DNA of 64,000 bases from Pseudomonadota bacterium (GTDB taxonomy: Bacteria; Desulfobacterota; Binatia; Binatales; Binataceae), in NCBI GenBank assembly GCA_021324455.1, contig JAJPJA010000039.1, positions 35,594-99,593 of the forward strand, written 5' to 3'. Position 1 is the stretch's first letter. Every line of letters begins with the position of its first letter. The translations under genes and the position numbers were made by a program. This document shows positions 1,171 through 35,753 of this stretch, piece after piece. The notes beneath the pieces were generated by a model. That model saw nothing but the letters and a program-made list of their open reading frames with translations, had not been told where the DNA came from and searched no databases.

Positions 1171-1794
1171 ATGAAAGCGACGACTTACGGATTCCTGGCG
1201 GCGGTGGTTGCTTTGGTCTTGTTCGCCACGCCGCTTAAGGTATTGGCGCATGATTTCGGCGGATGGCATCACGACCATGGCCATCATTGGGGATGGTACA
1301 AGCATCACGGCGGCGAAGGCTGGGGCGGTTACGGTCCGGGATACGGTTGGCATCACCATGATTGTGATGATGACGATTGGGGCGAGCATGGCGGCTACGG
1401 CGGTTATGGTCCGTATGGCGGTTACGGCGCGGGCTATGGCGGTTACGGTCCGGGCTACGGCGTGACTCCGCCCATCAGCATTCCGTGGAACGCGGGCGGC
1501 TACCAGGGATATTACGGATCAGGATACGCGCCCAACGGTAAGCTGATGCGCATGCAGCAGCGTTACAACGCCAACCAGGCATTGTACCAGGCCGCGATGG
1601 CGCAGGGCAACTACCCGCTGGCCAACAAGGCCGCCGCGCACATGCAGAAACAGTCGATGCGGCTGAACGCGGCCAATTCGATGCTGGGCGGAATGGGAAT
1701 TCCGTACGGCGCTCCCGGCTATGGTGCCAACCCCTACTACGGGCAGGGGGGCTATTCTCCGCTGAGTTCAATAATGCAGATGTTCGTTCCGTAA
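1171..1794 (+). CDS. secreted low-complexity protein: His/Gly/Tyr/Trp-rich N-terminal half with GYG repeats, Met/Gln/Asn/Ala-rich C-terminal half
   Basis: Signal peptide MKATTYGFLAAVVALVLFATPLKVLA. Repeats of the form GYGGYGPYGGYGAGYGGYGPGYG, visible as DNA-level ggctacggcggttatggt repeats. His-rich block HHDHGHHWGWYKHHGG and a DCDDDD run. The C-terminal half contains 10 Met. A RBS-like GGAAGGAG lies 8 nt upstream of the ATG. Confidence 0.6.
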   Translation: MKATTYGFLAAVVALVLFATPLKVLAHDFGGWHHDHGHHWGWYKHHGGEGWGGYGPGYGWHHHDCDDDDWGEHGGYGGYGPYGGYGAGYGGYGPGYGVTPPISIPWNAGGYQGYYGSGYAPNGKLMRMQQRYNANQALYQAAMAQGNYPLANKAAAHMQKQSMRLNAANSMLGGMGIPYGAPGYGANPYYGQGGYSPLSSIMQMFVP

Positions 1795-2679: not shown

Positions 2680-2700
2680 GCTTTATTACATTGCCTGAGC
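2663..2700. repeat. 19-bp tandem direct repeat (TTTATTACATTCCCTGAGC / TTTATTACATTGCCTGAGC) at a convergent gene junction
   Basis: Two adjacent copies at 2663-2681 and 2682-2700 with one mismatch. Copy 1 carries the last codons and TGA of the + strand phosphatase gene; copy 2 carries the stop (TTA = TAA on the minus strand) and last codons of the minus-strand oxidase gene. Confidence 0.7.
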
Positions 2701-5556
2701 CAGGCCGAGGTTGAGCACTTCCGCCAGATGCATCGCGCGGCGGCCGGGACAAAAATGCGCGATTTGGGTGCGGCATGAAAAGCCGTCGCTGATGATGATT
2801 GTGTCGGAAGCGGCGGCGCGGATTGCCGCCAGCAGCACGCGCTCGCCGATGGCGCGCGACAATTCATAGTGAGCGGTCTGGTAGCCGAACGCCCCCGCCA
2901 TCCCGCAGCATCCCGAATCCGGCGTCAGCAGCTCAAGGCCGTCGATCCGTTTCAGAATCGCAACTTCGTGCTCCAGACCGGCGATTGCTTTCTGATGGCA
3001 ATGCCCATGCAGCAGCGCCGTGCGTCCCGCCAGAGCGGGCAGGGCGAGTTGCGGAGCTTCACGCGCCAGAAATTCGTCGAGCATCAAGGCCGACCGCGCC
3101 ATCGCCGCCGCGCGGTTATCGGCGGGAAACAGCGCCGGCAACTCGTCGCGGAAGGTGAGTACACAACTGGGCTCCAGCCCGACGATCGTTTTGCCCTGAT
3201 CGAGCAGCGGCGCCATCGCGTCCATCACCCGGGTCAGCCATCGCCGCGCGGTATCGAGCAGGCCGTGGTCGAACAGCGGCCGTCCGCAGCATAGATCGAC
3301 GGCTGGGATTTCCACCGCGAAGCCGGCGCGTTCCAATACTTCCACCGCCGCGCGCGCGATCCCGGGTTCGAAAAAATTGGTGAAGGTGTCAGGAAACAGG
3401 ACGACGCCGCGCCGGGCGCCGGCCCGTCCGCGGCGTCGAAACCAGGCGCGGAAGGACTCCGCCGCGAATGCCGGCAGTGTGCGATCGGGATGGATGCCGC
3501 ACAGCGCACGCAGGACCGATTTCGATATCGGCAGACGCGCCAGGCGATTGATTGCGCGCGGGGCGAATTGCGCGAATGCGGCGCCGTAATGAATTCTGCC
3601 AAACAGATGCGCCGACAGCGGCCGCCGATGGCGCTGATAGTAATGCGACAGGAACTCCGCCTTATAAGCCGCCATATCGACGCCGGCCGGGCATTCGCGC
3701 TTGCATCCCTTGCACGCCAGGCACAGGTCCAGCGCTTCGTGAATAGCGCTGTCCGCGCTATCGCCGCCCAGAAAATCTCCGGTCAGCGCCTCGTACAGCA
3801 GATGGGCGCGGCCGCGCGTGGAATGCATCTCCTCGCGCGTTGCCATGTACGAGGGGCACATCATGCCGCCTTCGAGGCGGCGGCATTTGCCAATCCCGAC
3901 GCATCGCGAGGCCGCGCCGGCAAAACCGTGGTCGGCGCTGAAATCGAAGTGGGTGTCAAGCGGGCGTCCCGCGGAGGTCGCGCGCAGATGGTCGTCCAGC
4001 GCGTCGGGGTTGACGATCACGCCCGGATTCATCCGATTGCCCGGATCGAAGATGCGTTTGAATTCAGCGAACGCCGCGATCAAATCCGTCCCGAACATCT
4101 TGGGCAGCAGTTCCGAGCGGGCGCGTCCGTCGCCATGCTCGCCCGACAGCGAACCGCCGAACTCGCCCACCAGATCGCCGATTTCGAGCATCGCCGAGCG
4201 GAACTGACGCACGCCTTCGGGCGTGGAAAAATCGAAATTGATCCGGCCGTGGACGCATCCGTCGCCGAAATGCCCATAAAAGGTTGCGGCCTCAAGCTGG
4301 CGCCGCGCCAGCAAGGCCTGCAGGCGGCGCAGAAAGCCGCCCAGCTTTTCCGGCGCAACCGCGGTATCCTCTGCGCCGGGCCAGGTGCGCGGGCGTCCGG
4401 CAATGACGGCGCTGGCGCCCAGACCCGACTCGCGCAATTCCCACACCGCCTTCTGCTCGCGCTCGTCGCTGAACAGTTTGCAGTCCGCGCGGACGGCGGC
4501 GTTGCCGGCGCGGCGGGCCAGTTCCGCCGCCCGCCCGCGTGCGTCGTCCGCGGTATCCGCGCCGAACTCCACCATCAGGAAGCCGCCGCCGCGCGGCAGC
4601 CTGCGCTCGACTTCGGCCGCGCCCGCCCTGGTCCGGCAGAACTCGATCAGCCGGTTGTCGAAACCCTCCAGCGCCTGCGGGCGATGCTCCAGGATCCACG
4701 GCACCTGGTCGGCGGCCTGGAACATGTCCTCAAATCCCATCATCAGCAGGGCGCGGCGGCGCGGACGCGGCACAAGGCGGACGGTGGCTGACAAGGTCAG
4801 CGCCAGCGTGCCTTCGGAGCCGACCAGCGCGCGCGCCAAATTGAAGCCGTTCTCCGGCAGGAGCTGGTCGAGATTGTAGCCGGATACGCGCCGCGGAATC
4901 CGGGGAAAGCCGCCGCGAATCGAAGCGGCGTAGCGGTCGCGCAGCGCGATCAATTTCGCGTAGGTCTCGCCTCCGCGGGGGCTATCGCCGATTCGCGCCA
5001 GTTGTTCCTCGGCGCTGCCGCCCAGGCGCATCCGGGTGCCGTCATAGAGCAGGGCGTCGAGTTCGATCAGGTTGTCCACGGTCTTGCCGTATTGGACGGA
5101 ATGCGATCCGCAGGAGTTGTTGCCGATCATCCCGCCCAGGCAGCATCGATCCTTGGTGGTCGGGTCTGGGGCGAATTGAAGATCGAGTTGGGCGGCCTGG
5201 TTGTTGAGCGTGCTGAGAACCACGCCGGGTTCGACCACGGCCACGGCGCGGTCCGCGTCGATAAGTTTGATTGAATTCAGGTACTTGGAAAAATCCAGCA
5301 CCAGGGCGCGATTGCAGGTCTGGCCGGCCAGCGACGTGCCGCCGCCGCGGGGCACGATGGCCACGTCGTTCTCATGCGCAAGAGCGAGGGCGGCGATAAC
5401 GTCGCCTTCATGGCGGGGAACGACGACGCCGAAGGGAATGAGCCGGTAGTTGGAAGCGTCGGTGGAGTAGAGCGCCCGGCTCCCCGCATCGAACCGTACT
5501 TCGCCCTCAAGGCGGCGCCGCAGTTCGGCTTGCAGGACCGGGAGCGAGATTTTCAT
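2686..5556 (-). CDS. FAD-linked oxidase fused to a Fe-S cluster-binding domain (GlcD-GlcF fusion type, YdiJ / D-2-hydroxyglutarate dehydrogenase-like), 956 aa
   Basis: The N-terminal FAD-binding PCMH domain shows VAIVPRGGGTSLAGQ. The C-terminal region has ferredoxin-like CxxCxxCxxxCP motifs (CLACKGCKRECP, and CCGRPLF for a second cluster). The size matches the YdiJ family. Confidence 0.85.
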   Translation of the reverse strand: MKISLPVLQAELRRRLEGEVRFDAGSRALYSTDASNYRLIPFGVVVPRHEGDVIAALALAHENDVAIVPRGGGTSLAGQTCNRALVLDFSKYLNSIKLIDADRAVAVVEPGVVLSTLNNQAAQLDLQFAPDPTTKDRCCLGGMIGNNSCGSHSVQYGKTVDNLIELDALLYDGTRMRLGGSAEEQLARIGDSPRGGETYAKLIALRDRYAASIRGGFPRIPRRVSGYNLDQLLPENGFNLARALVGSEGTLALTLSATVRLVPRPRRRALLMMGFEDMFQAADQVPWILEHRPQALEGFDNRLIEFCRTRAGAAEVERRLPRGGGFLMVEFGADTADDARGRAAELARRAGNAAVRADCKLFSDEREQKAVWELRESGLGASAVIAGRPRTWPGAEDTAVAPEKLGGFLRRLQALLARRQLEAATFYGHFGDGCVHGRINFDFSTPEGVRQFRSAMLEIGDLVGEFGGSLSGEHGDGRARSELLPKMFGTDLIAAFAEFKRIFDPGNRMNPGVIVNPDALDDHLRATSAGRPLDTHFDFSADHGFAGAASRCVGIGKCRRLEGGMMCPSYMATREEMHSTRGRAHLLYEALTGDFLGGDSADSAIHEALDLCLACKGCKRECPAGVDMAAYKAEFLSHYYQRHRRPLSAHLFGRIHYGAAFAQFAPRAINRLARLPISKSVLRALCGIHPDRTLPAFAAESFRAWFRRRGRAGARRGVVLFPDTFTNFFEPGIARAAVEVLERAGFAVEIPAVDLCCGRPLFDHGLLDTARRWLTRVMDAMAPLLDQGKTIVGLEPSCVLTFRDELPALFPADNRAAAMARSALMLDEFLAREAPQLALPALAGRTALLHGHCHQKAIAGLEHEVAILKRIDGLELLTPDSGCCGMAGAFGYQTAHYELSRAIGERVLLAAIRAAASDTIIISDGFSCRTQIAHFCPGRRAMHLAEVLNLGLAQAM

Positions 5557-5586
5557 GGCGGTTTATTATCCCCCTGTCAGGGGGAG

Positions 5587-5609
5587 ATGGGCGCCGCTGC
5601 GGCGCCCAT
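5587..5609 (-). terminator. GC-rich stem-loop between two minus-strand genes (possible weak terminator or 5' UTR structure)
   Basis: ATGGGCGCCG-CTG-CGGCGCCCAT is a perfect 10-bp stem. It is not followed by a canonical U-tract on either strand, and it sits 31 nt upstream of the oxidase start codon. Confidence 0.3.
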
Positions 5610-5651
5610 CTTTAGCTATCCGAGCCGCCACCCATTTTCCTGCTGCGTTGA

Positions 5652-6692
5652 TCAGGCCGGGTTGATGGCAATCTTCCCCATCACCTCGTTGCGTTCCATG
5701 ATCTCCTGCGCGCGGCCGAGTTCCTTAAGCGGCAGTACTTTGCCGACCACGGGCTTAATCTGGCCCGACTCGATAAAGCGCATCGCGTCGACCAGTTCGG
5801 CTTTGTTGCCCAGATGCGATCCCAGGTAGTTCTGCTGCTTGTTCCAGAGCAGACGGATGTCCATATGCGCGTCGAAACCAGAGGTTGCGCCGCAGACCAC
5901 GATGGTGCCGCCCCACTTCAGGCATTGCATTGAGATGGGCCAGGTATCGGCGCCGGTATGCTCGAACACGATGTCGGCGCGTTTGCCGTTGGTAAACTTG
6001 CGGACCTCTTTGAAAACGTCCTGTTTGGAGCGATTGATGACGAATTCGGCGCCGAGTTCCTGGCACATCTTAAGTTTGTCGTCGCCCGAGGCGACCGCGA
6101 TGGCGCGCGCGTTGAACAGCTTGGCGACCTGGATGGCCATGATGCCGAGGCCGCCGGCGGCGCCCCAGATCAGGACGAAATCGCCGGCGCGGATTTTGGC
6201 CCGCGTCACCAGCATCCGCCATACGGTTACCAGCACCAGCGAGATCGACGCGGCCTCTTCATGGCTGAGATTTTTGGGCTTGGGCAGCACATTGACGGCG
6301 GGGAGTTTGCAGTACTCGGCGTGGCCGCCGTCGAGCGGTCCGGTCTGGAAGCCCCAGATTTTGAAGTCTTTGCAGAAAAACTCGTTGCCGGCGGTGCAGG
6401 CTTCGCATTCGCGGCAGGACAGTCCGCAATGGACGATGACCTCGTCGCCGACTTTGACGTTATGCACGCCGGGACCGATTTCGGCCACCACGCCGGAAAC
6501 GTCGGAACCCGAAATGTGGGGCAGGATGATCTCCATGCCGGGCAATCCGCGCCGCGCCCAGATGTCGTTGTAGTTGCAGGCCGAGGCTTTGACCTGGATC
6601 ACGACTTCGTTGTGGCCGGCTTTCGGCTGCGGGGTTTCCTTGTACTGAAGCACCTCGGGGCCGCCGTTTTGCTCGAATATGACTGCCTTCAT
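5652..6692 (-). CDS. medium-chain dehydrogenase/reductase (zinc-dependent alcohol dehydrogenase family)
   Basis: Structural-zinc Cys4 motif CGLSCRECEACTAGNEFFC, a GxGxxG-like cofactor loop LIWGAAGGLGIMAIQ, and a 346-aa length. Confidence 0.8.
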   Translation of the reverse strand: MKAVIFEQNGGPEVLQYKETPQPKAGHNEVVIQVKASACNYNDIWARRGLPGMEIILPHISGSDVSGVVAEIGPGVHNVKVGDEVIVHCGLSCRECEACTAGNEFFCKDFKIWGFQTGPLDGGHAEYCKLPAVNVLPKPKNLSHEEAASISLVLVTVWRMLVTRAKIRAGDFVLIWGAAGGLGIMAIQVAKLFNARAIAVASGDDKLKMCQELGAEFVINRSKQDVFKEVRKFTNGKRADIVFEHTGADTWPISMQCLKWGGTIVVCGATSGFDAHMDIRLLWNKQQNYLGSHLGNKAELVDAMRFIESGQIKPVVGKVLPLKELGRAQEIMERNEVMGKIAINPA

Positions 6693-6960
6693 AGTTTAAC
6701 GCTCCGCGAAATGTTCTGGATATTCAACCAAAAACTCAACATAGGTAGCGTTTCGGCGCATCCGAGACAACAGCCCGCGCAACCGCGTCCGGTACACCGC
6801 CAGTTCCCGGCACGGAGCCGGCGCTGGTTGATTGATCCAACGGAATTCCATAGAAATCAACGGGCATTCGGCGCCCCTGGGTCTTTTCTGACTCCGGTTG
6901 CCGGGCCAACCTCGCCAGGTATCGCAGGGTCGAAGCGGCGCGCCGGTACAATGGTATAAA

Positions 6961-7437
6961 ATGGCAGTCAGAAAAATCGAGCGGGGACACTACTTCGAGG
7001 ACTTCGAGGTCGGCCAGGTCTTCAGGCATCACTGGGGCCGCACCATCAACGAGGGCGACAACTCGCTGTTCACCAGCGTGACGATGAACTTCAACCCCAT
7101 CTACTTCAACCGCGAGTACGCACGCAGCCTGGGCTACAACGACCTTATCGTCAATCATATGCTGGTGCTCAACGTGGTCTTCGGACTGTCGGTCGAGGAC
7201 CTCAGCGAGCGCGCCATCGCCCATCTCGGATATGAAAAGGTGAAATTTCTCGGCACCGTCTATGCCGGCGATACGCTGACCTCGCAGTCCGAAGTGCTGT
7301 CCAAGCGCGAAGCGTCGCGTCCGGACCGCGGGGTGGTCAAGTTCCGCACCACCGGCTTCAACCAGCGCGGCGAGAAGGTGCTGGAATACGAACGCCCCGT
7401 GCTGATCCGCAAACGCAACCCCGGTTCCAAGGAGTGA
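6961..7437 (+). CDS. MaoC-like (R)-specific enoyl-CoA hydratase/dehydratase, hot-dog fold
   Basis: Single MaoC domain (FEDFEVGQVFRHHWGRTINEGDNSLFTSVTMNFNPIYFN). The start was moved from the track's 6898 to the ATG at 6961, which gives the typical MaoC N-terminus. Confidence 0.75.
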   Translation: MAVRKIERGHYFEDFEVGQVFRHHWGRTINEGDNSLFTSVTMNFNPIYFNREYARSLGYNDLIVNHMLVLNVVFGLSVEDLSERAIAHLGYEKVKFLGTVYAGDTLTSQSEVLSKREASRPDRGVVKFRTTGFNQRGEKVLEYERPVLIRKRNPGSKE

Positions 7438-7443
7438 ATCACG

Positions 7444-8607
7444 ATGCCCGCCGTAACACCGGAACACGAAGAAATCCGCCGCTCGGTTCGGGAGTTCGTC
7501 GAGCATGAAGTGGTGCCGATCGCCAACGACCTCGACCGCCAGGAAGCGCAGATCCCCGAGCCCATCATCCAGAAGATGGCCGAACTGGGCTATTTCGGCA
7601 TCATCTTTCCCCCCGAAGAGGGCGGAATGGGTCTGGATTACGTCGCCATGGCGATCGTGACCGAGGAACTTTCCCGCGGATGGCTTTCGGTGGGATCGGT
7701 GATGACCCGCAACCTCATCACCGGCAGCCTCATCCACAACAACGGCACGCCCGAGCAGAAGAAAAATTTCATGCCGCGAATTGCGCGCGGCGAGGTGATG
7801 ACGGCGGCGGCCTTCACCGAGCCCGATACCGGTTCCGATACCGCCTCGCTCAAGCTGCGCGCGGTCAAGCATGGCGACGGCTACCTGCTCAAAGGCTCCA
7901 AGATGTGGTGCACGTTCGCCAACCGCGCCAACATCCTGACCGTGATGACGCGCACCGACCCCGATGTCTCGAAAAAGCATCGCGGGCTGTCGCTGATGCT
8001 GTTGGAGAAGACGCCGGGCGACGATTTCGCGCCGCCGCATCTGACCGGATCGCGGATTCCGACTATCGGCTATCACGGCATGAACAGCTTCGCGCTGTCG
8101 TTCGACGACGCGTTCGTGCCGGCCGCCAACCTGATCGGCGGCAAGGAAGGTCAGGGCTTTTACCAGCTCATGAACACCTACGAGGCGGCGCGCATCCAGA
8201 CCGCGGCGCGCGGCGTCGGCGTGGCGCAGGCGGCGTACGAATGCGCGGTGAAATACGCCAAAGAGCGGACCCAGTTCGGCGTGCCGATCGGCAACCATCA
8301 GGTGATCCGCCACAAGCTGGCGCACATGGCGGTGGAGATCGAAGCGGCGCGCCAGCTCGCGTATTTCGCGGCGTCGCAGAAAGACACCGGCAAGCGATGC
8401 GATTACGAGGCCGGGTTGGCCAAGGTGTTTGCGGCCGAGATGGCCGAGCGGGTCACGCGCGAGGCGATGCAGATCCACGGCGGCTACGGCTATTCGATGG
8501 AGTTCAACGCGCAGCGCTTCTGGCGCGACGCGCGCGTGCTGTCGATTTTCGAGGGCACCAGCGAAATCCAGCTCGAAGTAATCGGGCGCCGGATCATGGA
8601 GCAGTAA
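7444..8607 (+). CDS. acyl-CoA dehydrogenase
   Basis: Full-length ACAD fold (387 aa). The C-terminal signature YGYSMEFNAQRFWRDARVLSIFEGTSEIQ is present. An AGGAG RBS lies 11 nt upstream, and the gene starts 7 nt after the upstream stop. Confidence 0.9.
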   Translation: MPAVTPEHEEIRRSVREFVEHEVVPIANDLDRQEAQIPEPIIQKMAELGYFGIIFPPEEGGMGLDYVAMAIVTEELSRGWLSVGSVMTRNLITGSLIHNNGTPEQKKNFMPRIARGEVMTAAAFTEPDTGSDTASLKLRAVKHGDGYLLKGSKMWCTFANRANILTVMTRTDPDVSKKHRGLSLMLLEKTPGDDFAPPHLTGSRIPTIGYHGMNSFALSFDDAFVPAANLIGGKEGQGFYQLMNTYEAARIQTAARGVGVAQAAYECAVKYAKERTQFGVPIGNHQVIRHKLAHMAVEIEAARQLAYFAASQKDTGKRCDYEAGLAKVFAAEMAERVTREAMQIHGGYGYSMEFNAQRFWRDARVLSIFEGTSEIQLEVIGRRIMEQ

Positions 8608-8611
8608 GCCG

Positions 8612-9097
8612 ATGAGCATCACCTCCGACGGCAGCTACTTCGAGGATTTCACCGTGGGCGATACGCTGGTACATCAGCGCGGCCGCACCATCACGGAAAC
8701 AGACAATCACATGTTCACCTCGCTGGTGATGAACACCGCGCAGCTGCATTTCAACCAGCACCTGGTGGACCGCGAGCCGGATACCTATTTCAGCGGGCGG
8801 CGCGTGGTTTACGGCGGCGTGGTGCTGGCGTTCGTGGTGGGTTTGGCGTCGGAGGATACCAGCGAGAACGCGATCGCCGAGCTGGAGATGGACAACGGGC
8901 GGCATACCAATCCGGTGTTTCACGGCGACACCATTTACGCCGAATCCACCGTGCTGGAAAAACGCGATTCGCATCGGCCCGACGCCGGCATCGTCAAGTT
9001 CAAGCTGATTGGCAAAAGGCCCGACGGCACCGTGGTGGTGGAAATCGAGCGCTCCGTGCTGATCAAGCGCAAATCCTACTTTCTCAAAAATTCCTGA
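8612..9097 (+). CDS. MaoC-like dehydratase, second hot-dog protein
   Basis: Paralogous single MaoC domain (FEDFTVGDTLVHQRGRTITETDNHMFTSLVMNTAQLHFN). It starts 5 nt after the ACAD stop. Confidence 0.8.
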   Translation: MSITSDGSYFEDFTVGDTLVHQRGRTITETDNHMFTSLVMNTAQLHFNQHLVDREPDTYFSGRRVVYGGVVLAFVVGLASEDTSENAIAELEMDNGRHTNPVFHGDTIYAESTVLEKRDSHRPDAGIVKFKLIGKRPDGTVVVEIERSVLIKRKSYFLKNS

Positions 9098-9109
9098 GAG
9101 GTTGCAGAC

Positions 9110-10147
9110 ATGTTCGTCCTCGACGGCGGCAAGCGCTTTGTGATTCCACGCACCGAGATGACCTATCCCGGGCATAACCTCAAGCTGCATCAGAACGCGG
9201 CCGACCCGGTCAAGGCGCCGGTCGATCACGTGATGGCGGATTTCGAGGACGCCTGCCCCTACGAATTCAAGGGCGAGAAGAGCCGCAAGGTGATGGTCGA
9301 GGCGCTCAACACGCTGGACTTCGGCAAGAAGGTGGTGACCATCCGGCCCAACAACATTCACTCCAGCTTCTTCAAGGGCGATATGGAAGCGGTGATGCTG
9401 GGGGCGCCCAACCGCTTTCACGGCATCATCCTGCCCAAGACGCGCGGCCCCGAGGAGATTGTCGCGGTATCAAAGCTGCTCGACGATCTCGAGAAGCGCG
9501 GCGGATGGCAGTACAAGGTCCAGATCGAGTCGCTGATCGAAACCCCGCACGCGTTGATCCGCGCGTATGACATCGCCAGCGCGTCGGATCGGATGGCGGG
9601 GCTGATTTTTGGAATCGCGGATTTCGCCGCCAACCTCGGTATCCGCGAGATCGTCGAGGACCAGAACCGCAACTTCCACTACGCCAAGCAAGCCGTGGTG
9701 ATCGCGGCCAAGGCGGCGGGACTGCATGCGATCGACAACGTCTATCTGCGCCTGATGCGCAAGGACGATCCGCCCGAACGCGTGGCGGAGATCGAGCGCG
9801 GTCTGCGCGAAAAGAACACCGGCGCCGCCAATCTGGGTATGGACGGCACCTGGGTTATCCATCCGCAGCAGGCGGAAATCGCCAACGCCTGCTTCTCACC
9901 GACGCCCGAGCAGGTGGACGAAGCGCGCCGCGTGGTCAAGCTCTACCACGAGAAGGGCGGCGGCTCGATGGCGGACCCCAAGACCGGCGACATGATCGAC
10001 GAAGCCACGATCAAGATTGCCCTGATGGATCTGGCCAAAGGCGTGCAGATGGATTTGGTGTCGCCCGAAGAGCTGGCCGATTGGTCCGCGCGCAGCCGCG
10101 AAATCACCGGCTACGACATCCTCCAACTGATGCGCCGTGTGCAATAA
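9110..10147 (+). CDS. HpcH/HpaI aldolase / citrate lyase beta subunit (CitE)-like CoA-ester lyase (malyl-CoA, citramalyl-CoA or HMG-CoA lyase type)
   Basis: 345 aa with the CitE/Mcl-like N-terminus VMADFEDACPYEFKGEK. Co-oriented with, and 13 nt downstream of, the second MaoC gene. Confidence 0.8.
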   Translation: MFVLDGGKRFVIPRTEMTYPGHNLKLHQNAADPVKAPVDHVMADFEDACPYEFKGEKSRKVMVEALNTLDFGKKVVTIRPNNIHSSFFKGDMEAVMLGAPNRFHGIILPKTRGPEEIVAVSKLLDDLEKRGGWQYKVQIESLIETPHALIRAYDIASASDRMAGLIFGIADFAANLGIREIVEDQNRNFHYAKQAVVIAAKAAGLHAIDNVYLRLMRKDDPPERVAEIERGLREKNTGAANLGMDGTWVIHPQQAEIANACFSPTPEQVDEARRVVKLYHEKGGGSMADPKTGDMIDEATIKIALMDLAKGVQMDLVSPEELADWSARSREITGYDILQLMRRVQ

Positions 10148-30188: not shown

Positions 30189-31304
30189 TCAGCTCAGGTT
30201 CATGTTGAACAATCGATCGCAGTTATGGCTGATGATCTTGTTCTTAATCGGCTCGGGCACGTCGCTGAAGATGTCGGCGATCACTTCGCGCGACTTGGGC
30301 CAGGTGGTCGCGCTATGCGGATAATCGGACGCCCACATGTAGTTGTCCTCGCCGAAAAATCGCGTGACCCGCGGTCCGATCGGATCGATCTCGAAGGTAA
30401 AGAACACCTGCCGCCGCATGTACTCCGACGGCAGATGCGCCAGCTTGTTGTCCGCCATCGGAGCGAACTTCTTGAACCGCCGGTCGAGCTGCCAGACAAA
30501 ATACGGCACCCATCCCGCGCCCAATTCGACCGAAACCACCTTCAAATTGGGATAACGCTCGAGCACGCCGCCGAACACCAGGCTGCACAGCGTTTCCTGG
30601 ATCTCGTGGACGAAATGCAGACTGGCAAAGGTGAGGAATTCGGGACTGCCGTCGATTTTGGCCGCGCGCTTTTTGTCCTTGGCGGTGATCTCATGCATCG
30701 TGATCACCATCCCATGGTCCTGGGCGGCGGCGAAGAAGGGATCATAGATGCGGCTGTGGTAGGGACGATCGGCGGGCGGACCCGACCAGACCATCGCGCC
30801 TTTCAGCCCCAATTTGGCTGCGCGCTCGACTTCCTTGACCCCCTCGGCGACATTTTCCAGTGAGATCAGTGCGACCGGAAACAGGCGCTTGGGCGCATGC
30901 GAGGCGAACTCCGCCATCCAATCGTTGTAGATGCGGAAGCAGGCCAGCTGCAGTTCGGCGTCATCCAAACCGAAGAGCGAAAAGCCCAGCGACGGGTAGA
31001 GCACTTCGGCGGCGACGCCGTCGGTCTCCATGTCCCTGACCCGCGCCTGGGGGTCCCAGGCGCCGGGCCGCGCCGCCTCATACCCCTTGCTCATCATCTC
31101 CTTCAGTTCCTTGCCCTCGGCGCCCAGGGCATAAAAGGCCGCCACCTGCATCGGGGGAACGCCCGGAGCTTCGAACATCGGTCCCGCGCCGGGCTTGTCG
31201 ACCACGCGCGGCGCGCGGTCGCGAAAGCGCTTATCCAGACGTTCTTCCCAAAGCCTGGGAGGCTCGACGATATGACCGTCAGAGGAAATGATTGGCACGC
31301 TCAT
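30189..31304 (-). CDS. amidohydrolase-2 (PF04909, ACMSD/LigW-like) family protein
   Basis: N-terminal ISSDGHIVEP and a C-terminal WASDYPH metal-binding motif. 371 aa. Confidence 0.8.
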   Translation of the reverse strand: MSVPIISSDGHIVEPPRLWEERLDKRFRDRAPRVVDKPGAGPMFEAPGVPPMQVAAFYALGAEGKELKEMMSKGYEAARPGAWDPQARVRDMETDGVAAEVLYPSLGFSLFGLDDAELQLACFRIYNDWMAEFASHAPKRLFPVALISLENVAEGVKEVERAAKLGLKGAMVWSGPPADRPYHSRIYDPFFAAAQDHGMVITMHEITAKDKKRAAKIDGSPEFLTFASLHFVHEIQETLCSLVFGGVLERYPNLKVVSVELGAGWVPYFVWQLDRRFKKFAPMADNKLAHLPSEYMRRQVFFTFEIDPIGPRVTRFFGEDNYMWASDYPHSATTWPKSREVIADIFSDVPEPIKNKIISHNCDRLFNMNLS

Positions 31305-31491
31305 CGTGGTGTTCGTCCTTCAATAAAATTTGCCGCCGGTGTCCGGCCGCGGATTGTCAGGGTGCTGCGCCTCAATTAGCGTTAGATCGTAAAGCGGCCA
31401 TTGTAAAGTCCGCAGTCTCTCCATTCGGAACTTTGTATTGCGGCGCGCAGCCGCTTGCCCATCGGCACCCGAATGGAGCACAAGTAAAGCC

Positions 31492-32751
31492 ATGGCACGG
31501 ATTGAAGATTACTACGATCCCTGGAGCCCCGATTTTGTCCGCGATCCGCTCAGCCGCTACCGTCCGCTGCTGTCGCGGCCCCCGATACTGGTCGAAGGCG
31601 GCAGGCTGCCGCCCTCGCTCAGCCAGGGCGCCTTGCCGGGCAAGCCGATCGTGCTGATCGCGCGCTACGACGACGTGCTGACCGTGATGCGCGACGCCGC
31701 GCGGTTTTCCAATCATCGGCCGCCGCGGCCGGGCGAGCAAAAGGCCGGCGAGGGCGGGCTTAAGTTTTACGGCGCCGCCAACCTGCTCTTCAGCGATCCG
31801 CCGGTGCATACGCGGATGCGCCGGCTGGTTACCCGTGCGTTCAGTCCGCGGCGCATCCGCGACATGACCCCGTCGATCAAATCGCTGGTGATAAAAATGA
31901 TCGATGCCGTTGCGGAAAAAGGCAGCTTCGAAGTGATGAAGGATTTGGCGTGGCCGCTGCCGATGGCGGTGATTGCGGACATGCTCGGAGTGACGCGCGA
32001 ATTTTACCACGACTTCCATCGCTGGGCCGTGCTCATCATCACCGCCGACAGCCTCAGCGCCAACGGTTCCTATTCCAAGGAGACCCGCGAAGCGGTCGGC
32101 AAGCTGCGCAATTACGTCAGCGGAGAAATTGAAAAGCGCCGCAATTCAAAGGCCGAGGATGTAATCAGCGTTTTGGTCCGCGCCCAGGAGGAAGGCGACG
32201 CCTTGACCAGCGGTGAAGTGCTGGCCTTCGTGTTGCTGCTGCTGCTGGCCGGCAGCGAGACCACCACCAGTTTGATCGGCAATACGATGCAGCTGCTGGC
32301 GGAGCATCCGGAAGAATTCGAGCAGGTGCGCAGGAACCCGCAGTTGTGGACGCGCGCCATCGAGGAAATCCTGCGCTTCGAACCCCCGGTGCACGCCGTC
32401 GACCGCTTCGCCACGCGCGATACCGAGGTGGGCGGCACGGAAATTCCGCAGGGTTCGCTGCTGCACGTGCTGCTGGGTGCGGCCAACTTCGACCCGGCCA
32501 AATTTCCCGATCCGGAACGCTTCGACCTTACCCGCGACCCCAACGACCACGTGTCGTTCGGCGAGGGGATACATTTCTGTTTGGGCGCCGGACTGTCGCG
32601 GCTGGAAGGAGAAATCCTGTTCCCGTACCTGTTCGAGCGTTTCCCGCGCCTGCGTCCCGCCGTGCCCGGCTGCGATGGACGGCTGTACAACGGCGAGACG
32701 TCGTACTTCATGCCGCGGCGGGTCGGGTCGCTGCCGATGCTGATCGATTGA
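31492..32751 (+). CDS. cytochrome P450
   Basis: Heme-binding loop FGEGIHFCLGAGLS, I-helix LLLAGSETTTS, and ExxR (EEILRFEPP). Start at the ATG at 31492. Confidence 0.88.
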   Translation: MARIEDYYDPWSPDFVRDPLSRYRPLLSRPPILVEGGRLPPSLSQGALPGKPIVLIARYDDVLTVMRDAARFSNHRPPRPGEQKAGEGGLKFYGAANLLFSDPPVHTRMRRLVTRAFSPRRIRDMTPSIKSLVIKMIDAVAEKGSFEVMKDLAWPLPMAVIADMLGVTREFYHDFHRWAVLIITADSLSANGSYSKETREAVGKLRNYVSGEIEKRRNSKAEDVISVLVRAQEEGDALTSGEVLAFVLLLLLAGSETTTSLIGNTMQLLAEHPEEFEQVRRNPQLWTRAIEEILRFEPPVHAVDRFATRDTEVGGTEIPQGSLLHVLLGAANFDPAKFPDPERFDLTRDPNDHVSFGEGIHFCLGAGLSRLEGEILFPYLFERFPRLRPAVPGCDGRLYNGETSYFMPRRVGSLPMLID

Positions 32752-32792
32752 TTCGGCGGCGCAGCTTGCGCGGATCGCAGAATAGCGCCGAG

Positions 32793-33218
32793 CTAACGCA
32801 TCATCTGAAAGAACTCGACCGGAACTCCGTCCGGATCCTCGACATAGAAGCTGCGGAACCTGGGCACCACTTCCTCGATGTCGGAAATGATCTTCGCCCA
32901 CGGCATCGATTGCACTTCGCGGAATTTCGCCTCGACATCTTCAACCGCGAACGACATGTGCGGGCTGCCGGCATTGTTGTGATGAATATGCTGAGGCGCG
33001 CCGCCGCCGGCGGTGTATTCGAGCAACTGCAGCTTGAACCCACCCGCGCGCACGTAAGCTCCCTTGATGGCGGCGGGCGGGTTTCTGGTCAGCCGGGCAA
33101 ACCCGCCGTTTTGCAGTTCGAACGTGGCTTCCACCGTCATCCCCACCACTTCGCGATAAAATCTGAGCGAGGCATCCAGGTTGGTGACGGTCAGACCGAC
33201 ATGATCGAGCGCAGCCAT
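32793..33218 (-). CDS. VOC family (glyoxalase / bleomycin-resistance / dioxygenase fold) protein
   Basis: LDHVGLTVTNLDASLRFYREVVGM is the classic VOC N-terminus. The ATG at 33218 is preceded by AGGAGG. The ORF-track N-terminal extension was rejected. Confidence 0.75.
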   Translation of the reverse strand: MAALDHVGLTVTNLDASLRFYREVVGMTVEATFELQNGGFARLTRNPPAAIKGAYVRAGGFKLQLLEYTAGGGAPQHIHHNNAGSPHMSFAVEDVEAKFREVQSMPWAKIISDIEEVVPRFRSFYVEDPDGVPVEFFQMMR

Positions 33219-33325
33219 TTTCAACCTCCTGCCGGGGTGCGTTTCGGGCCACCCTAGCCGCAGAGCGCAAAGAAGAAAACGTCCGGCGTGGACTGTCGGC
33301 GCGCCATCGCTTAACTTGCTCATCC

Positions 33326-34135
33326 GTGGACGCAATCGAAAAGGCCGCCAGGCGCGCGGCGCGGGCCGCCGGCGCCGTTCATATCGCTCGATTCGGCAAG
33401 ACCACATTCAAGGGCAAAAGCAGCTTTTTGGACCTGGTGACCGAGGCCGACCAGGAAGCGGAGGCGGCGGTGGTCGGGATTCTGCATCGCGCCTTCCCCG
33501 ATCACGCGATTCTCTCCGAGGAAGGCGGCGGTATCGACCAGCCCAGTCAACATCGATGGATCATCGATCCGCTCGACGGCACCACCAATTTCGCCCACGC
33601 CTATCCCCATTGCTGCGTCTCCATCGGCTATGAACGGCGCGGACGGCTGGAATTGGGCGTCATTTTGGACGCGCTGCGCGGTGAGCTGTTCCTCGCGCGC
33701 CGGGGCCGGGGCGCCACGCTCAACGGCAAGCCAATCGCCGTCAGCCGTGCCGCCACGCTCGACACCGCTTTGCTGTGCACCGGCTTTCCCTACGATCGCT
33801 CCGCGCGCCGGCGCTTTTACCTGACCTTCTGGGAGGCGATGATGACCCGCGTGCACGGCGTGCGCCGCACCGGCAGCGCCGCGCTGGATCTGGCCTGGGT
33901 GGCGTGCGGCAGGATGGACGGGTTCTGGGAGTTCGGGCTCAAGCCGTGGGACGTCGCGGCGGGCACGCTGATAGTGCAGGAGGCCGGCGGCAGAGTCACC
34001 AATATGGACGGAACCAGATTGAGCCTGACCGCGGGACGAATAGCGGCGACCAATCGCCGCCTGCACAAGCAGTTGCTGGACGTCATCGCGGAAAACTTCG
34101 CGGAGGCCGAACGCCGCGAAGCTTCCGGGATGTAG
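33326..34135 (+). CDS. inositol monophosphatase family protein (SuhB/CysQ/HisN-like)
   Basis: Motifs DPLDGTTNFAH and WDVAAG, GTG start. Confidence 0.85.
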   Translation: MDAIEKAARRAARAAGAVHIARFGKTTFKGKSSFLDLVTEADQEAEAAVVGILHRAFPDHAILSEEGGGIDQPSQHRWIIDPLDGTTNFAHAYPHCCVSIGYERRGRLELGVILDALRGELFLARRGRGATLNGKPIAVSRAATLDTALLCTGFPYDRSARRRFYLTFWEAMMTRVHGVRRTGSAALDLAWVACGRMDGFWEFGLKPWDVAAGTLIVQEAGGRVTNMDGTRLSLTAGRIAATNRRLHKQLLDVIAENFAEAERREASGM

Positions 34136-34209
34136 CGGCCCCCGCCAGCGTTTCTGCCCGCAAAGCGGCGGGGGAAACTCAAGCGGCAATCGATCCGGCG
34201 GCCGCTCAG

Positions 34210-35679
34210 TCAGCGCGGCTGGCTGTGCGCCAAAACCGATCGCGCCGCCGCCTCCACCGCGGTGCCTTTGAAAAAATCCGGATTCGCTTCAGCCTTGGCG
34301 CGCACCGGGTTGATTAGGACGAAATCGCGGAAATCCTCCTCGCTGATGCATCCGCGCTCCACCATCTCCCACGCCTCCGACGCGGCCAGGCGCATGTCGG
34401 GCAGATCGAAATGGCCGAGATCGGAGCCGTAAATCGCGCCCAGCCGCGCTGCGAAAGGATTTTTGCGCGGGTCGAAGGCAACCGCGGTCATGCGGTCGTC
34501 GCCTTCGCATCCGAAAAAGAAATTCGGCACGAAACGGTCGCGGATGTCTTCGCGCGTGCGCACCGCGCAGCGCGCGAACTCGTCGAGGTCGGCGGGATCC
34601 TGCACCACGCCCCACAAAAGCTGCGAGCGGTCGTCCTGGCGCGCCGCGATTTCGGCGCGGTAATCGCTTCCGTACTCCCTGAACAGACGGCGCATCAGAT
34701 CCTCGTCCAGAGCGCGGGGGTCGTAGTTTGACACCATTGCGGCGTTATGTTTTTCCCAATGACCGGCGAGATCGCACAGCAGGCCCGCAGCCCAGGCCGC
34801 GCCGCCTTCGAGAAAAGCGAAACGGATTTGAGGAAAGCGGCGCGTCACTCCGCCCAAAAACAGCGACTTGCAAATCGCCTCAGCCGACGCGGCGAAGTGT
34901 CCGATATGGTTGTAGACGAAATTGGAGATGGAGTTGCGCATCCCCAGGCCCATCGTGCCGCTATGGAAGGTCGGCGCCACCTTCAGCTCAACGCATCTGG
35001 CCCACACCGGATCGTAGTCGTATTCACTGTCCAGCGCGTAGGTGTCGAACCAATGCGCATAGCGGGCGGCGTCGGGACTTTTCCTGGCCGCGGCGGGAAT
35101 CGTTCGCACCACGAAAGCCGGCATCAGCACGACCTTCAATCCGAGCACGCGGACCGCGTAATCCAGTTCCTCCAGAGCTTCGGCCGGCGTATGCATCGGA
35201 ATCACCGCGGCCGGAGTCAGACGGTCGGCGTACGCGCGGAAAATGTCGGCATGCAGCCTGTTCAGCGCGCGGCATGAGGCACGGCGCAACTCCTCATCGC
35301 CCAGGCTGGGCAGCACGATGCCGAAACTCGGATAGATGATACTGAAGTCGATACCCATTTCGGGCAGCCGCTGATGCAGCAGCCGGGGCAGCGAACTGGT
35401 CGCCCGGTCCAGCGTGTTGCGCGTCGGATGCGCCGCCCACAGCGGACGCGCCAGCCGGGCGTCGCGGCGCTCCTGCGGAGTCATCCGGTACCATCGAAAC
35501 GCGATCGGGCTGTTGGGCATCGACTTGAGCCGATCCAGCATCCGGCTGCCGCCCACTTCGCGCAGGTAATCGAACAAAGCCGGTTCGAATTCAGCGGTAT
35601 GGCCGTCGGAATCGATTATCGGATGATTGAGACGGGCGCGAATCGCGGCTGATTTGGAAATCGTTGCTGAGGTCGGCAT
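34210..35679 (-). CDS. amidohydrolase-2-like protein, long form (489 aa), paralog A
   Basis: N-terminal IIDSDGHTAEFEP, internal HSGTMGLG, C-terminal GSDLGHFD. Start placed at the ATG at 35679 (MPTSATISKSAAIRARL). Confidence 0.7.
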   Translation of the reverse strand: MPTSATISKSAAIRARLNHPIIDSDGHTAEFEPALFDYLREVGGSRMLDRLKSMPNSPIAFRWYRMTPQERRDARLARPLWAAHPTRNTLDRATSSLPRLLHQRLPEMGIDFSIIYPSFGIVLPSLGDEELRRASCRALNRLHADIFRAYADRLTPAAVIPMHTPAEALEELDYAVRVLGLKVVLMPAFVVRTIPAAARKSPDAARYAHWFDTYALDSEYDYDPVWARCVELKVAPTFHSGTMGLGMRNSISNFVYNHIGHFAASAEAICKSLFLGGVTRRFPQIRFAFLEGGAAWAAGLLCDLAGHWEKHNAAMVSNYDPRALDEDLMRRLFREYGSDYRAEIAARQDDRSQLLWGVVQDPADLDEFARCAVRTREDIRDRFVPNFFFGCEGDDRMTAVAFDPRKNPFAARLGAIYGSDLGHFDLPDMRLAASEAWEMVERGCISEEDFRDFVLINPVRAKAEANPDFFKGTAVEAAARSVLAHSQPR

Positions 35680-35753
35680 CGCAATCTCACCTGCGGTTTG
35701 TGCACGGTACAAAGCATCACGGGCCGGCGCCGGCCGTACCCGCGCAAGCAGCG

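Follow-up and report, generated by a model that had tools for sequence, protein, structure and literature searches.

Organization of the locus

The window analysed here (the whole stretch of DNA, 64,000 nucleotides from an uncultured Binataceae bacterium of soil) contains four same-strand genes encoding a MaoC-type hydratase (MaoC1), an acyl-CoA dehydrogenase (ACAD), a second MaoC-type hydratase (MaoC2), and a CitE-superfamily CoA-ester lyase, next to a divergently transcribed gene for a zinc-type MDR protein (sMDR) (Table 1). The tight co-directional operon with a divergent MDR gene, as described in the first-pass annotation, is borne out by the open reading frame (ORF) listing and Pfam domains. 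The gaps of 7, 5, and 13 nt given there are coordinate differences, the untranslated nucleotides numbering 6, 4, and 12, and the divergent region, put at 270 bp, measures 268 bp when MaoC1 begins at ATG 6961. The start of MaoC1 may be either this codon or TTG 6898, which would shrink the divergent region to 205 bp; ATG 6961 is most likely the real start because homologues are 156-159 aa long.

Table 1. Positions of the genes and the intergenic region within the window
Feature	Position	Strand	Product length and Pfam domains
MaoC1	6961-7437	+	158 aa, single hot-dog; MC_hydratase/MaoC_dehydratas
ACAD	7444-8607	+	387 aa; three Acyl-CoA_dh domains
MaoC2	8612-9097	+	161 aa, single hot-dog; MC_hydratase/MaoC_dehydratas
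CitE-superfamily CoA-ester lyase	9110-10147	+	345 aa; HpcH_HpaI
sMDR (zinc-type MDR)	5652-6692	-	346 aa; ADH_N/ADH_zinc_N
Divergent intergenic region sMDR/MaoC1	6693-6960	.	268 bp; presumed promoter region
FAD-linked oxidase/4Fe-4S/CCG fusion	2686-5556	-	956 aa; FAD_binding_4, FAD-oxidase_C, Fer4_8, CCG

All five ORFs have coding-type composition (GC3 of 0.81-0.85 versus GC2 of 0.38-0.43), and the ACAD, MaoC2, and lyase starts are preceded, at a distance of 7-10 nt, by AAGGAG, GGAG, and GAGAGG motifs. Neither a sigma-70 consensus match nor an inverted repeat was found in the intergenic region. Among the genes of the window (Pfam-scanned, with the remainder read by eye), there was no biotin carboxylase, CoA-transferase, B12 mutase, CitD/CitF, ethylmalonyl-CoA mutase, epimerase, or canonical crotonyl-CoA carboxylase/reductase (Ccr), and family III CoA-transferase and MmgE/PrpD queries had no tblastn match within the window. 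The arrangement is not due to chance, because the MaoC1-ACAD-MaoC2-lyase order is repeated in at least 43 Binataceae loci (a count that varies with the treatment of cut contigs) and in 28 of the 35 informative non-Binatia metagenome loci.

A short dehydrogenase and a split hydratase

The top PDB match of the ACAD is the (2S)-methylsuccinyl-CoA dehydrogenase (Mcd) PdMCD (6es9; 380 bits, residues 171-550, 48% identity), whose Arg252, Arg421, Ser248, Thr418, Glu535, Ala285, and Phe287 are all conserved, whereas Arg376 of the three-arginine cluster is replaced by His. Ala285 and Phe287 correspond to the C2-methyl pocket described for PdMCD (PMC5798300). This residue signature is invariant across 44 Binataceae homologues, and the 170-residue N-terminal extension of Mcd is missing. 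The dicarboxylate-binding arginines, together with the C2-methyl pocket, support a C5-dicarboxyl-CoA substrate, one of the options entertained in the first-pass annotation, and we propose that the ACAD is a (2S)-methylsuccinyl-CoA dehydrogenase devoid of the N-terminal extension.

The two MaoC proteins match different halves of the mesaconyl-CoA hydratase (Mch) structure 4e3e. In phmmer comparisons, MaoC1 aligned to residues 4-155 with 104.9 bits (31.1 bits to the C-half) and was also matched by Pfam PF19315 (1.6e-29), whereas MaoC2 aligned to residues 195-316 with 73.8 bits (49.8 bits to the N-half). With the active-site residues of MeMeaC as reference (PMC10164722), residue alignment found Phe71, Ser79, and Arg142 kept in MaoC1, which has Tyr at the catalytic His position (NFNPIY), and Asn226 and His231 (NTAQLHF) as well as Tyr248-Gly249 kept in MaoC2; the carboxylate-binding residues of the N-domain are therefore retained in one protein and the catalytic Asn/His in the other. 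These signatures are invariant across 47 Binataceae homologues of MaoC1 and 52 homologues of MaoC2. Judged by sequence, MaoC2 is the equivalent of the C-terminal catalytic domain of Mch, while MaoC1 is that of the N-terminal non-catalytic domain and is proposed to act as a substrate-binding subunit, the two probably forming a heterodimer. The earlier idea that both genes specify a single two-subunit hydratase gains support from these N- and C-like Mch halves and their complementary active-site residues. Fused homologues are known, namely canonical Mch and a 353-aa protein of C. oxalaticus, and maoC1 and maoC2 occur together in 32 of the 35 informative non-Binatia loci. With about 50-60% identity, the hydratase subunits of the catabolic trio operons considered below are nearer to both proteins than canonical Mch is, and the active-site residues of MaoC1 and MaoC2 do not distinguish C1- from C4-ester specificity.

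The CitE-superfamily lyase

Among PDB structures, the lyase is best matched by the malyl-CoA lyases 5ugr, 4l9y, and 4l7z (107, 99, and 88 bits), compared with 47 bits for RipC, 37 bits for Rv2498c, and 26 bits for P. aeruginosa Ccl. The citE family model reached 126 bits, well under its cut-off of 443, and no CitD/CitF lies nearby, which argues against a citrate lyase beta subunit dependent on such partners, a possibility raised in the first-pass annotation. The catalytic set is complete, comprising a D-x-E-D motif, the Arg, the Glu and Asp Mg ligands, and a lid Asp (not Glu). The MCL-specific insertion is absent; an 11-residue insertion peculiar to this protein and a C-terminal extension of about 35 residues are present. 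Identity to characterised Mcl enzymes is only about 30%, and the lyases of catabolic trio operons (145-149 bits) are marginally closer than Mex/Rs Mcl (117-129 bits). Conservation is high across Binataceae (at least 79% identity), and an ortholog in another Binatia bacterium (GCA_026004195.1; 83% identity) adjoins a 554-aa long Mcd. We propose that the enzyme is a beta-methylmalyl-CoA/L-malyl-CoA lyase; its affinity to malyl-CoA lyases and the correspondence of the MaoC pair to Mch halves lend support to the Mch plus Mcl route, formerly a secondary suggestion. In 23 Binataceae loci, the lyase and sMDR are present without the rest of the cassette, so that the lyase also has a role independent of it.

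The divergent reductase and its neighbour

The top NCBIfam match of sMDR is TIGR01751 (Ccr), at 298.8 bits and thus under the cut-off of 378.55. In comparison with KsCcr (6owe), the NYN, IWGF(E/Q)T, and GSH motifs align to N81, F170, and H365, so that Asn81, Phe170, and His365 are conserved and Glu171 is replaced by Gln, leaving three of the four CO2-pocket residues of Ccr. At 346 aa, sMDR is about 70-100 residues shorter than the Binataceae Ccrs (415-417 aa, about 35% identical) and the crystallised Ccr chains (443-449 aa); the N-terminal region and two insertions are missing, while the Cys4 structural-zinc motif is retained. In the loci of about 31 sister Binataceae species, the sMDR position is taken by a bona fide Ccr, which passes the TIGR01751 cut-off with 569 bits, and sMDR homologues elsewhere adjoin an acyl-CoA mutase and an epimerase. 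Hence sMDR is probably the enoyl-CoA reductase or carboxylase of the ethylmalonyl-CoA (EMC) pathway and may be a compact substitute for Ccr.

Two aspects of this flank had been missed earlier: the Ccr likeness of the divergent MDR, and the conservation of the FAD-oxidase/CCG fusion (2686-5556) in this neighbourhood. The fusion, a YdiJ/GlcD-GlcF-like protein (503 bits to NF049975 YdiJ, under the cut-off of 1350), is encoded on the sMDR strand, 95 nt downstream of that gene, and adjoins sMDR or Ccr in most Binataceae loci, in every arrangement type. It may have a role in the pathway.

Proposed pathway and alternative readings

The serine cycle and the full EMC pathway have been predicted for Binatales by genome surveys (PMC8262859 and its supplement), and an EMC pathway in Binatota is itself an earlier prediction. 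We consider it reasonably probable that the four-gene operon represents the lower, C5-dicarboxyl-CoA part of this pathway, covering its final three steps, most likely as a module built of unusual parts: the hydratase takes up two genes, the dehydrogenase is shortened, the lyase is atypical, and the neighbouring gene encodes a compact Ccr look-alike. The short ACAD would oxidize (2S)-methylsuccinyl-CoA to mesaconyl-(C1)-CoA, which would be hydrated by substrate-binding MaoC1 together with catalytic MaoC2 to (2R,3S)-beta-methylmalyl-CoA, and the lyase would cleave this product into glyoxylate and propionyl-CoA, probably also cleaving L-malyl-CoA for the serine cycle. The domains, the half-by-half match to Mch, the published active-site residues, and the synteny with Ccr and long Mcd are observed, and from them we infer the substrates and regiochemistry.

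Alternatively, the operon could be a catabolic module for methylsuccinate, mesaconate, and itaconate, as in the Pseudomonas/Cupriavidus itaconate-methylsuccinate cluster, proceeding through C4-CoA esters from methylsuccinyl-C4-CoA via mesaconyl-C4-CoA and (S)-citramalyl-CoA to acetyl-CoA and pyruvate, with the CoA-transferase encoded elsewhere. Homologous MaoC-N/ACAD/MaoC-C trios (45-60% identity) are found inside TRAP transporter-MmgE/PrpD-trio-CoA-transferase-CoA-ester-lyase operons of Tistrella, Pseudosulfitobacter, and many metagenome contigs, MmgE/PrpD adjoining an ACAD being a marker of methylsuccinate catabolism (PMC12290011); the Binatia lyase is slightly nearer to the lyases of such operons than to Mex/Rs Mcl, and the window carries sMDR, not Ccr. 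We nevertheless regard this reading as unlikely. MmgE/PrpD and DctP homologues are found neither in the window nor in any Binatia locus searched (L001-L097), and family III CoA-transferases, absent from the window, appear in a few loci, where they are scattered, non-conserved, and kilobases away. Moreover, the Binatia ACAD has the Ala285/Phe287 pocket of C1-specific Mcd, whereas the catabolic trio ACADs have the canonical aromatic residue at 285 (Phe/Tyr285 with Leu/Met287), the neighbour in relatives is a bona fide Ccr or long Mcd, and P. aeruginosa Ccl and RipC match the lyase poorly.

Less probable still is that these enzyme types work on some other dicarboxyl-CoA, so that the module would produce glyoxylate or degrade alkylsuccinates outside the EMC pathway. 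Examples would be a route from succinyl-CoA through fumaryl-CoA and L-malyl-CoA to glyoxylate and acetyl-CoA, or one for a longer 2-alkylsuccinyl-CoA derived from hydrocarbons. Succinyl-CoA is a substrate for residual activity of PdMCD (PMC5798300), the R376H change in the carboxylate cluster makes the ACAD pocket unlike that of PdMCD, the lyase is an outlier within its superfamily, the constant neighbour is an FAD-linked 2-hydroxyacid oxidase-type fusion, and alkane degradation has been predicted for Binatota. Yet the Ala285/Phe287 pocket is specific to the methyl branch, a larger residue at 285 favouring succinyl-CoA (PMC5798300), adjacency to Ccr points to C5 EMC intermediates, and no succinate-adding or CoA-activating genes lie nearby.

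The lead analogy of the first-pass annotation, an M. tuberculosis Rv2498c/Rv2499c/Rv2500c-like module serving leucine breakdown and itaconate dissimilation (dehydrogenation of the isovaleryl-CoA type, (R)-specific hydration, and HMG-CoA/citramalyl-CoA cleavage), is very improbable: the CitE-like, MaoC, and ACAD families are superficially alike, and in another phylum (L172) an sMDR homologue adjoins a CitE-ACAD-MaoC cluster whose ACAD is FadE3-like, but the lyase resembles Rv2498c far less than malyl-CoA lyases, the ACAD has the C2-methyl pocket as well as Arg252, a dicarboxylate-binding residue missing from FadE3-like ACADs, methylcrotonyl-CoA carboxylase is absent, and the MaoC pair matches Mch halves.

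Comparison with known systems

The Rv2498c-Rv2499c-Rv2500c region likewise has adjoining genes for a CitE-like lyase, a MaoC hydratase, and an ACAD, whereas the Binataceae cluster has a dicarboxylate-type ACAD, two complementary MaoC halves, and no carboxylase genes. The itaconate/methylsuccinate clusters of P. aeruginosa (PA0878-0883) and C. necator, grouped here with the uncharacterised TRAP-MmgE/PrpD-MaoC-ACAD-MaoC-CoA-transferase-lyase operons of Tistrella pTM1 and Pseudosulfitobacter plasmids, have in common with the Binatia loci the trio order, a CitE-superfamily lyase after the trio, and C5-dicarboxyl-CoA esters as substrates. Unlike them, the Binatia loci have no MmgE/PrpD, CoA-transferase, or transporter, their neighbour is Ccr or sMDR, and their lyase falls into a different subgroup (about 33% identity).

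In Streptomyces, EMC genes are clustered with ccr in the emc operon (ccr-ecm-mml-mch-mcd). Judging from its 6067 bp, this operon would have room only for a short mcd (about 1.2 kb) and mch (about 0.5 kb), suggesting a precedent for reduced forms, and Zarzycki et al. in 2008 reportedly described Streptomyces Mch relatives with a single hydratase domain. The likeness concerns operon layout and sizes alone: Streptomyces has one mch, whereas Binataceae possess a pair of distinct MaoC genes, of which one is catalytic and the other not, in a cluster without ecm and with a different gene order.

The lower EMC module of Alphaproteobacteria (PdMCD, 6es9; Mch/MeaC, 8hgn and 4e3e; Mcl1, 4l9y and 5ugr) runs through the three types of reaction predicted here, in identical order. 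Several features nonetheless set the Binataceae version apart: a 346-aa MDR stands in place of Ccr in the window, Mcd is without the N-terminal extension of about 170 residues that makes PdMCD dimeric, and Mch is divided into two genes, one on either side of mcd. Even so, the hydratase keeps every published active-site residue of Mch, and the lyase has the complete catalytic residue set of the CitE/Mcl superfamily.

Organization of the locus

The locus comprises a divergent 346-aa MDR reductase, termed here sMDR, and, on the opposite strand, MaoC1, ACAD and MaoC2 (together, the cassette) followed by a CoA-ester lyase. This gene set is present as listed in the first-pass annotation, with each domain call upheld by Pfam, and its genes, which differ from the textbook enzymes, probably run the lower half of the ethylmalonyl-CoA (EMC) pathway. 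For MaoC1, the start at ATG 6961 is favoured because homologues are 156-159 aa long, and with this start the divergent region between sMDR and MaoC1 spans 268 bp. The untranslated gaps within the four-gene operon are 6, 4, and 12 nt, and Shine-Dalgarno-like motifs lie upstream of ACAD, MaoC2, and the lyase gene. All five ORFs have coding composition (GC3 0.81-0.85; G+C of the window, 62-65%), and scans of the intergenic regions for promoters, terminators, and inverted repeats gave no signal above background.

Features of the locus and of the rest of the window
Feature	Position	Strand	Evidence
207-aa Gly/Tyr/His-rich protein	1171-1794	+	
FADox	2686-5556	-	
MDR (sMDR)	5652-6692	-	ORF listing, Pfam
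MaoC1	ATG 6961 or TTG 6898 to 7437	+	ORF listing, Pfam
ACAD	7444-8607	+	ORF listing, Pfam
MaoC2	8612-9097	+	ORF listing, Pfam
CitE/HpcH-type lyase	9110-10147	+	ORF listing, Pfam
Amidohydro_2/P450 cluster	30189-37789		
Split sulfatase, both ORFs	37837-40253	-	
Split sulfatase, SGSH_C-like C-terminal part	37837-38973	-	
Split sulfatase, Sulfatase domain	38946-40253	-	

In the window, neither a mutase, an epimerase, a carboxylase, nor a CoA-transferase was found (Pfam on the scanned genes, the rest by eye; tblastn). The Pfam-scanned genes include an aldo/keto reductase, an SDR, an acetolactate-synthase-type ThDP enzyme, an aconitase, amidohydrolases, a P450, and a sulfatase, and MutS, GlnD, XerD, and Sat/CysC were identified by eye from translations. 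Two overlapping ORFs seem to share the sulfatase between them, which may reflect a frameshift or a pseudogene. Three Amidohydro_2 genes form a cluster with genes for a cytochrome P450 and a member of the inositol-monophosphatase family, possibly a catabolic island of aromatic or decarboxylase type. A 207-aa protein combines an N-terminal hydrophobic segment with long Gly/Tyr/His-rich repeats (GYGGYGP...). Downstream of sMDR lies FADox, a 956-aa fusion of FAD-linked oxidase, 4Fe-4S, and CCG domains that is YdiJ- or GlcD-GlcF-like, under all curated cut-offs. FADox adjoins sMDR or Ccr, an EMC enzyme, in most Binataceae loci, and might conceivably oxidise glycolate or a D-2-hydroxyacid, thereby feeding or draining glyoxylate.

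A probable short methylsuccinyl-CoA dehydrogenase

The best PDB match of the ACAD is the (2S)-methylsuccinyl-CoA dehydrogenase (Mcd) of Paracoccus (PdMCD; 6es9, 380 bits), of which the 387-aa window protein covers residues 171-550 only, the N-terminal extension of ~170 residues being missing. Because this extension substitutes for the tetramer (dimer-dimer) interface, the ACAD is expected to form a canonical tetramer. The specificity of Mcd has been attributed to a carboxylate-binding cluster of three arginines (252, 376, and 421) and to a C2-methyl pocket, in which Ala285 stands where an aromatic residue is usual and the aromatic side chain is shifted to Phe287 (PMC5798300). In PdMCD numbering, the window ACAD retains Arg252, Arg421, Ser248, Thr418, and the catalytic Glu535, while Arg376 is replaced by His and Glu380 by Ser. 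The pocket is present as Ala122 and Phe124, a state shared by all 44 Binataceae homologues, by PdMCD, and by an Azospirillum long Mcd, whereas ACADs from trios (MaoC-N/ACAD/MaoC-C) in catabolic contexts carry Phe/Tyr285 and Leu/Met287 instead. Its sequence marks the window ACAD as a probable Mcd that lacks the extension.

Long Mcd-type ACADs themselves fall into two active-site types, both retaining the three arginines: the Paracoccus/Azospirillum type has Ala285/Phe287, and the other, comprising PDB 8ciw and a Binatia long Mcd (L002, 8196-9860), carries Ile at 285 and either Ile or Val at 287.

A probable split mesaconyl-CoA hydratase

MaoC1 (158 aa) and MaoC2 (161 aa) are encoded by separate genes with the ACAD gene between them, rather than as one two-domain mesaconyl-CoA hydratase (Mch; PF19315) of ~350 aa, and they score 107.6 and 56.3 bits, respectively, against the Mch model NF041625 (cut-off 560). 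Each protein matches one half of Chloroflexus Mch (4e3e) better than the other: MaoC1 gives 104.9 bits to residues 4-155 and 31.1 bits to the C-half, and MaoC2 gives 73.8 bits to residues 195-316 and 49.8 bits to the N-half. Comparison with Methylorubrum MeaC (8hgn) gives similar half-by-half results. In MeaC, bound malate is surrounded by Phe71, Ser79, Asn85, and Arg142 of the N-domain and by Asn226, His231, Tyr248, and Gly249 of the C-domain, with Asn226 and His231 as the catalytic pair (PMC10164722); Phe71, Ser79, and Arg142 bind the beta-methylmalyl moiety. MaoC1 retains the equivalents of Phe71, Ser79, and Arg142 and has Tyr at the catalytic His position, while MaoC2 retains those of all four C-domain residues; these states are invariant in 47 (MaoC1) and 52 (MaoC2) Binataceae homologues. 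Furthermore, fused two-domain homologues exist, namely Mch itself and a 353-aa protein of Cupriavidus oxalaticus, which constitutes Rosetta-stone evidence that MaoC1 and MaoC2 act together. On its active-site residues, the pair is probably a split mesaconyl-CoA hydratase, which would reversibly hydrate mesaconyl-C1-CoA to beta-methylmalyl-CoA, and it would presumably form the heterodimer suggested in the first-pass annotation.

Conservation of the locus in Binataceae

All 80 species-level loci obtained from GTDB genomes are from Binataceae MAGs. When tblastn hits of the window proteins in these loci were mapped on the lyase tree, three clade-specific arrangements emerged. The first, in about 31 loci of the Binatus clade, has FADox-Ccr divergent from MaoC1-ACAD-MaoC2-lyase; the Ccr of these loci is a genuine one, scoring 569 bits with TIGR01751 (cut-off 378.55). 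The second, in 23 loci, has FADox-sMDR divergent from the lyase gene, with no cassette. The third, that of the window's clade, has FADox-sMDR divergent from cassette-lyase in 6 loci; one contig appears among them twice, as L001 and L007. In a Binatia genome further removed, the gene transcribed divergently from the lyase ortholog (83% identity) encodes a long Mcd-type ACAD of 554 aa. Across lineages, the lyase is thus tied to three different EMC enzymes. All serine-cycle and EMC genes have been reported in Binatales from KEGG assignments (Murphy et al., PMC8262859 and supplement).

One Binataceae species (L078, 7371-11029) has the order sMDR - ACAD - lyase, and neither MaoC gene occurs at the locus. 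In a close relative whose lyase is 92% identical (L001/L007, 8301-9463), gene calling divides the ACAD into two overlapping genes (85 and 319 aa); the two explanations are a frameshift, the MAG being a long-read assembly, and a pseudogene.

The trio outside Binatia and a C4-ester alternative

The trio is also found outside Binatia. In a metagenome scan with an alignment of five MaoC2 relatives as the query, the order MaoC-N/ACAD/MaoC-C occurs in 28 of the 35 informative non-Binatia loci, and the two MaoC genes are adjacent in 4 more. A search of representative proteins with MaoC2 returned both many fused C-halves of ~355 aa and many single-domain proteins with an NTAxxHF motif. The non-Binatia trio typically has MmgE/PrpD upstream and, downstream, a family III CoA-transferase, whose nearest match is succinyl-CoA:mesaconate CoA-transferase, and a CoA-ester lyase of ~300 aa. 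Plasmids of Tistrella and Pseudosulfitobacter carry annotated versions that also encode a TRAP dicarboxylate transporter.

This context resembles the itaconate/methylsuccinate clusters (Ict-Ich-Ccl with C4-Mcd and MmgE/PrpD), in which an ACAD next to MmgE/PrpD oxidises methylsuccinyl-C4-CoA (PMC12290011; PMC13491972). The itaconate-like function suggested in the first-pass annotation therefore carries real weight as the main rival, in which the Binatia locus would serve a C4-ester catabolic route for C5-dicarboxylates. The hydratases favour neither reading, as all published active-site positions are identical in EMC-type and catabolic contexts and do not separate C1- from C4-ester specificity. 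However, the genomic neighbours in Binatia argue against such a route: MmgE/PrpD and the transporter (DctP) are absent from the window and from the Binatia loci L001-L097 (tblastn), a CoA-transferase is lacking in the window and no conserved one occurs in the Binatia loci (tblastn), and the neighbour in Binatia loci is Ccr or a long Mcd. The ACAD signature at positions 285 and 287 points the same way, and we consider the C4-ester route unlikely for the Binatia locus.

The widespread operon with the order TRAP DctPQM - MmgE/PrpD - MaoC (N-like) - ACAD - MaoC (C-like) - mesaconate-CoA-transferase-like - CoA-ester lyase (Tistrella mobilis pTM1 477448-491909, L166; the Pseudosulfitobacter plasmid, L167; L103, L152, and ~30 other metagenome loci) is apparently uncharacterised in the literature searched. 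Its lyases score 214-279 bits against the Mex/Rs malyl-CoA lyases, and its end products may be glyoxylate and propionyl-CoA, or pyruvate and acetyl-CoA. One metagenome contig carries two copies of the trio in opposite orientation (L101, 2377-8459). A Nonomuraea locus (H72) considered as a possible actinobacterial EMC operon was rejected, since it contains no more than a MaoC-ACAD pair beside a P450.

The CoA-ester lyase

Among PDB entries, the lyase scores highest against malyl-CoA lyases (5ugr, 107 bits; 4l9y, 99 bits; 4l7z, 88 bits), followed by CLYBL (71 bits), RipC (47.5 bits), Deinococcus CitE (45 bits), Rv2498c (about 37 bits; chains 35-38), and P. aeruginosa Ccl (26 bits). The superfamily catalytic set is complete, with Asp42/Glu44/Asp45, Arg76, the Mg ligands Glu141 and Asp168, and the lid residue Asp299 lying in the aligned motifs ADFEDA, IRPN, LIET, IADFAA, and MIDEATIK; the lid residue is Asp, not the Glu of the thioesterase subgroup. 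All members of both MCL clusters are described as carrying a family-specific insertion that follows beta-strand 6 (MCL-R residues 167-197, MCL-C residues 182-220; Zarzycki and Kerfeld, PMC3832036). This insertion is absent from the window lyase, which has ~20 residues fewer there than 5ugr and 4l9y and carries an insertion and a C-terminal extension of its own. The lyase is for these reasons regarded as an outlying subgroup, not placed in the Mcl families; it scores 82.8 bits against the Mcl model NF041626 (cut-off 500) and passes no curated NCBIfam cut-off. For homologues with 81-98% identity, the source records give the name Candidatus Binataceae or Binatia.

Other lyase types fit poorly. 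A citrate lyase beta subunit acting with CitD/CitF, which the first-pass annotation had named as counter-evidence to its own proposal, was not borne out: TIGR01588 gives 126.3 bits against a cut-off of 443.4, and no CitD or CitF was found among the scanned window genes or in the neighbourhoods of annotated relatives. The RipC/Ccl type was likewise rejected (NF038242, 101.5 bits; cut-off 375). The proposed likeness to the M. tuberculosis Rv2498c cluster, with its leucine/HMG-CoA reading, was abandoned on scores and context, given the low Rv2498c score, an ACAD of Mcd rather than isovaleryl-CoA type, and the lack of an adjacent methylcrotonyl-CoA carboxylase, no carboxylase being found in the window (Pfam on the scanned genes, the rest by eye).

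The small MDR reductase

The closest structure to sMDR, a zinc-type MDR, is an uncharacterised Thermus 'ADH' (2eih), and its best family model is Ccr (TIGR01751), at 298.8 bits, below the cut-off. It is ~70-100 residues shorter than Ccr, with the Cys4 structural-zinc motif, read from the sequence, kept. In an alignment with K. setae Ccr (KsCcr), three of the four CO2-pocket residues are conserved in sMDR (Asn81, Phe170, and His365), and the fourth, Glu171, is replaced by Gln; 2eih has none of the four. The KsCcr variant E171A retains 97% carboxylation with a 17-fold lower kcat (PMC6628652), so Gln171 may still allow function.

Homologues of sMDR with 62-68% identity were found, some named Chloroflexi or Dehalococcoidia by their sources. 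In three loci (L171, 4992-9047; L175 and L176, both 3981-8044), homologues with 65-66% identity lie directly after genes for the large subunit of an acyl-CoA mutase, for a methylmalonyl-CoA epimerase, and for a B12-binding subunit, in an apparent operon; another homologue has no CoA-ester context. Separately, L172 (7001-13464) encodes a small MDR, a CitE-like lyase, a FadE3-like ACAD, a single MaoC, a mutase large subunit, and an acetoacetyl-CoA-reductase-like SDR, with a thiolase nearby. Although this locus resembles an EMC or M. tuberculosis-type module and was first taken as a full EMC operon, its ACAD is of a different class that lacks Arg252, and the assignment was rejected.

Overall, sMDR probably belongs to the ECR lineage and acts as an enoyl-CoA reductase. 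A bolder and doubtful reading is that it represents a compact, undescribed ECR branch that would do the job of Ccr, by reductive carboxylation or plain reduction of crotonyl-/acrylyl-CoA. This would give an EMC-type pathway built wholly from non-canonical parts: a mini-ECR, a short tetramer-type Mcd, a heterodimeric Mch, and an insertion-less Mcl. The reading is suggested by the position of sMDR in the slot held by bona fide Ccr in sister species, by the retained pocket residues, and by the homologues in other phyla in operons with acyl-CoA mutase and methylmalonyl/ethylmalonyl-CoA epimerase.

Implications and comparison with known systems

Binatota are abundant, uncultured soil bacteria and predicted methylotrophs that regenerate glyoxylate via the EMC pathway. 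The split Mch and short Mcd offer a test case for the evolution of the fused and extended forms, and the Ala285/Phe287 versus Phe/Tyr285 signature may serve as a marker for annotating Mcd as C1-specific EMC-type or C4-specific catabolic. If sMDR is a true carboxylase, it would add a new, smaller scaffold to one of the fastest known classes of CO2-fixing enzymes. The EMC pathway was already predicted in Binatales (PMC8262859). What makes the locus interesting is mainly its split Mch and short Mcd, together with the ACAD signature and a possible mini-ECR. Compared with the synthetic CO2-fixation systems CETCH and HOPAC, the split Mch and extension-less Mcd would represent natural 'minimal' versions of their enzymes.
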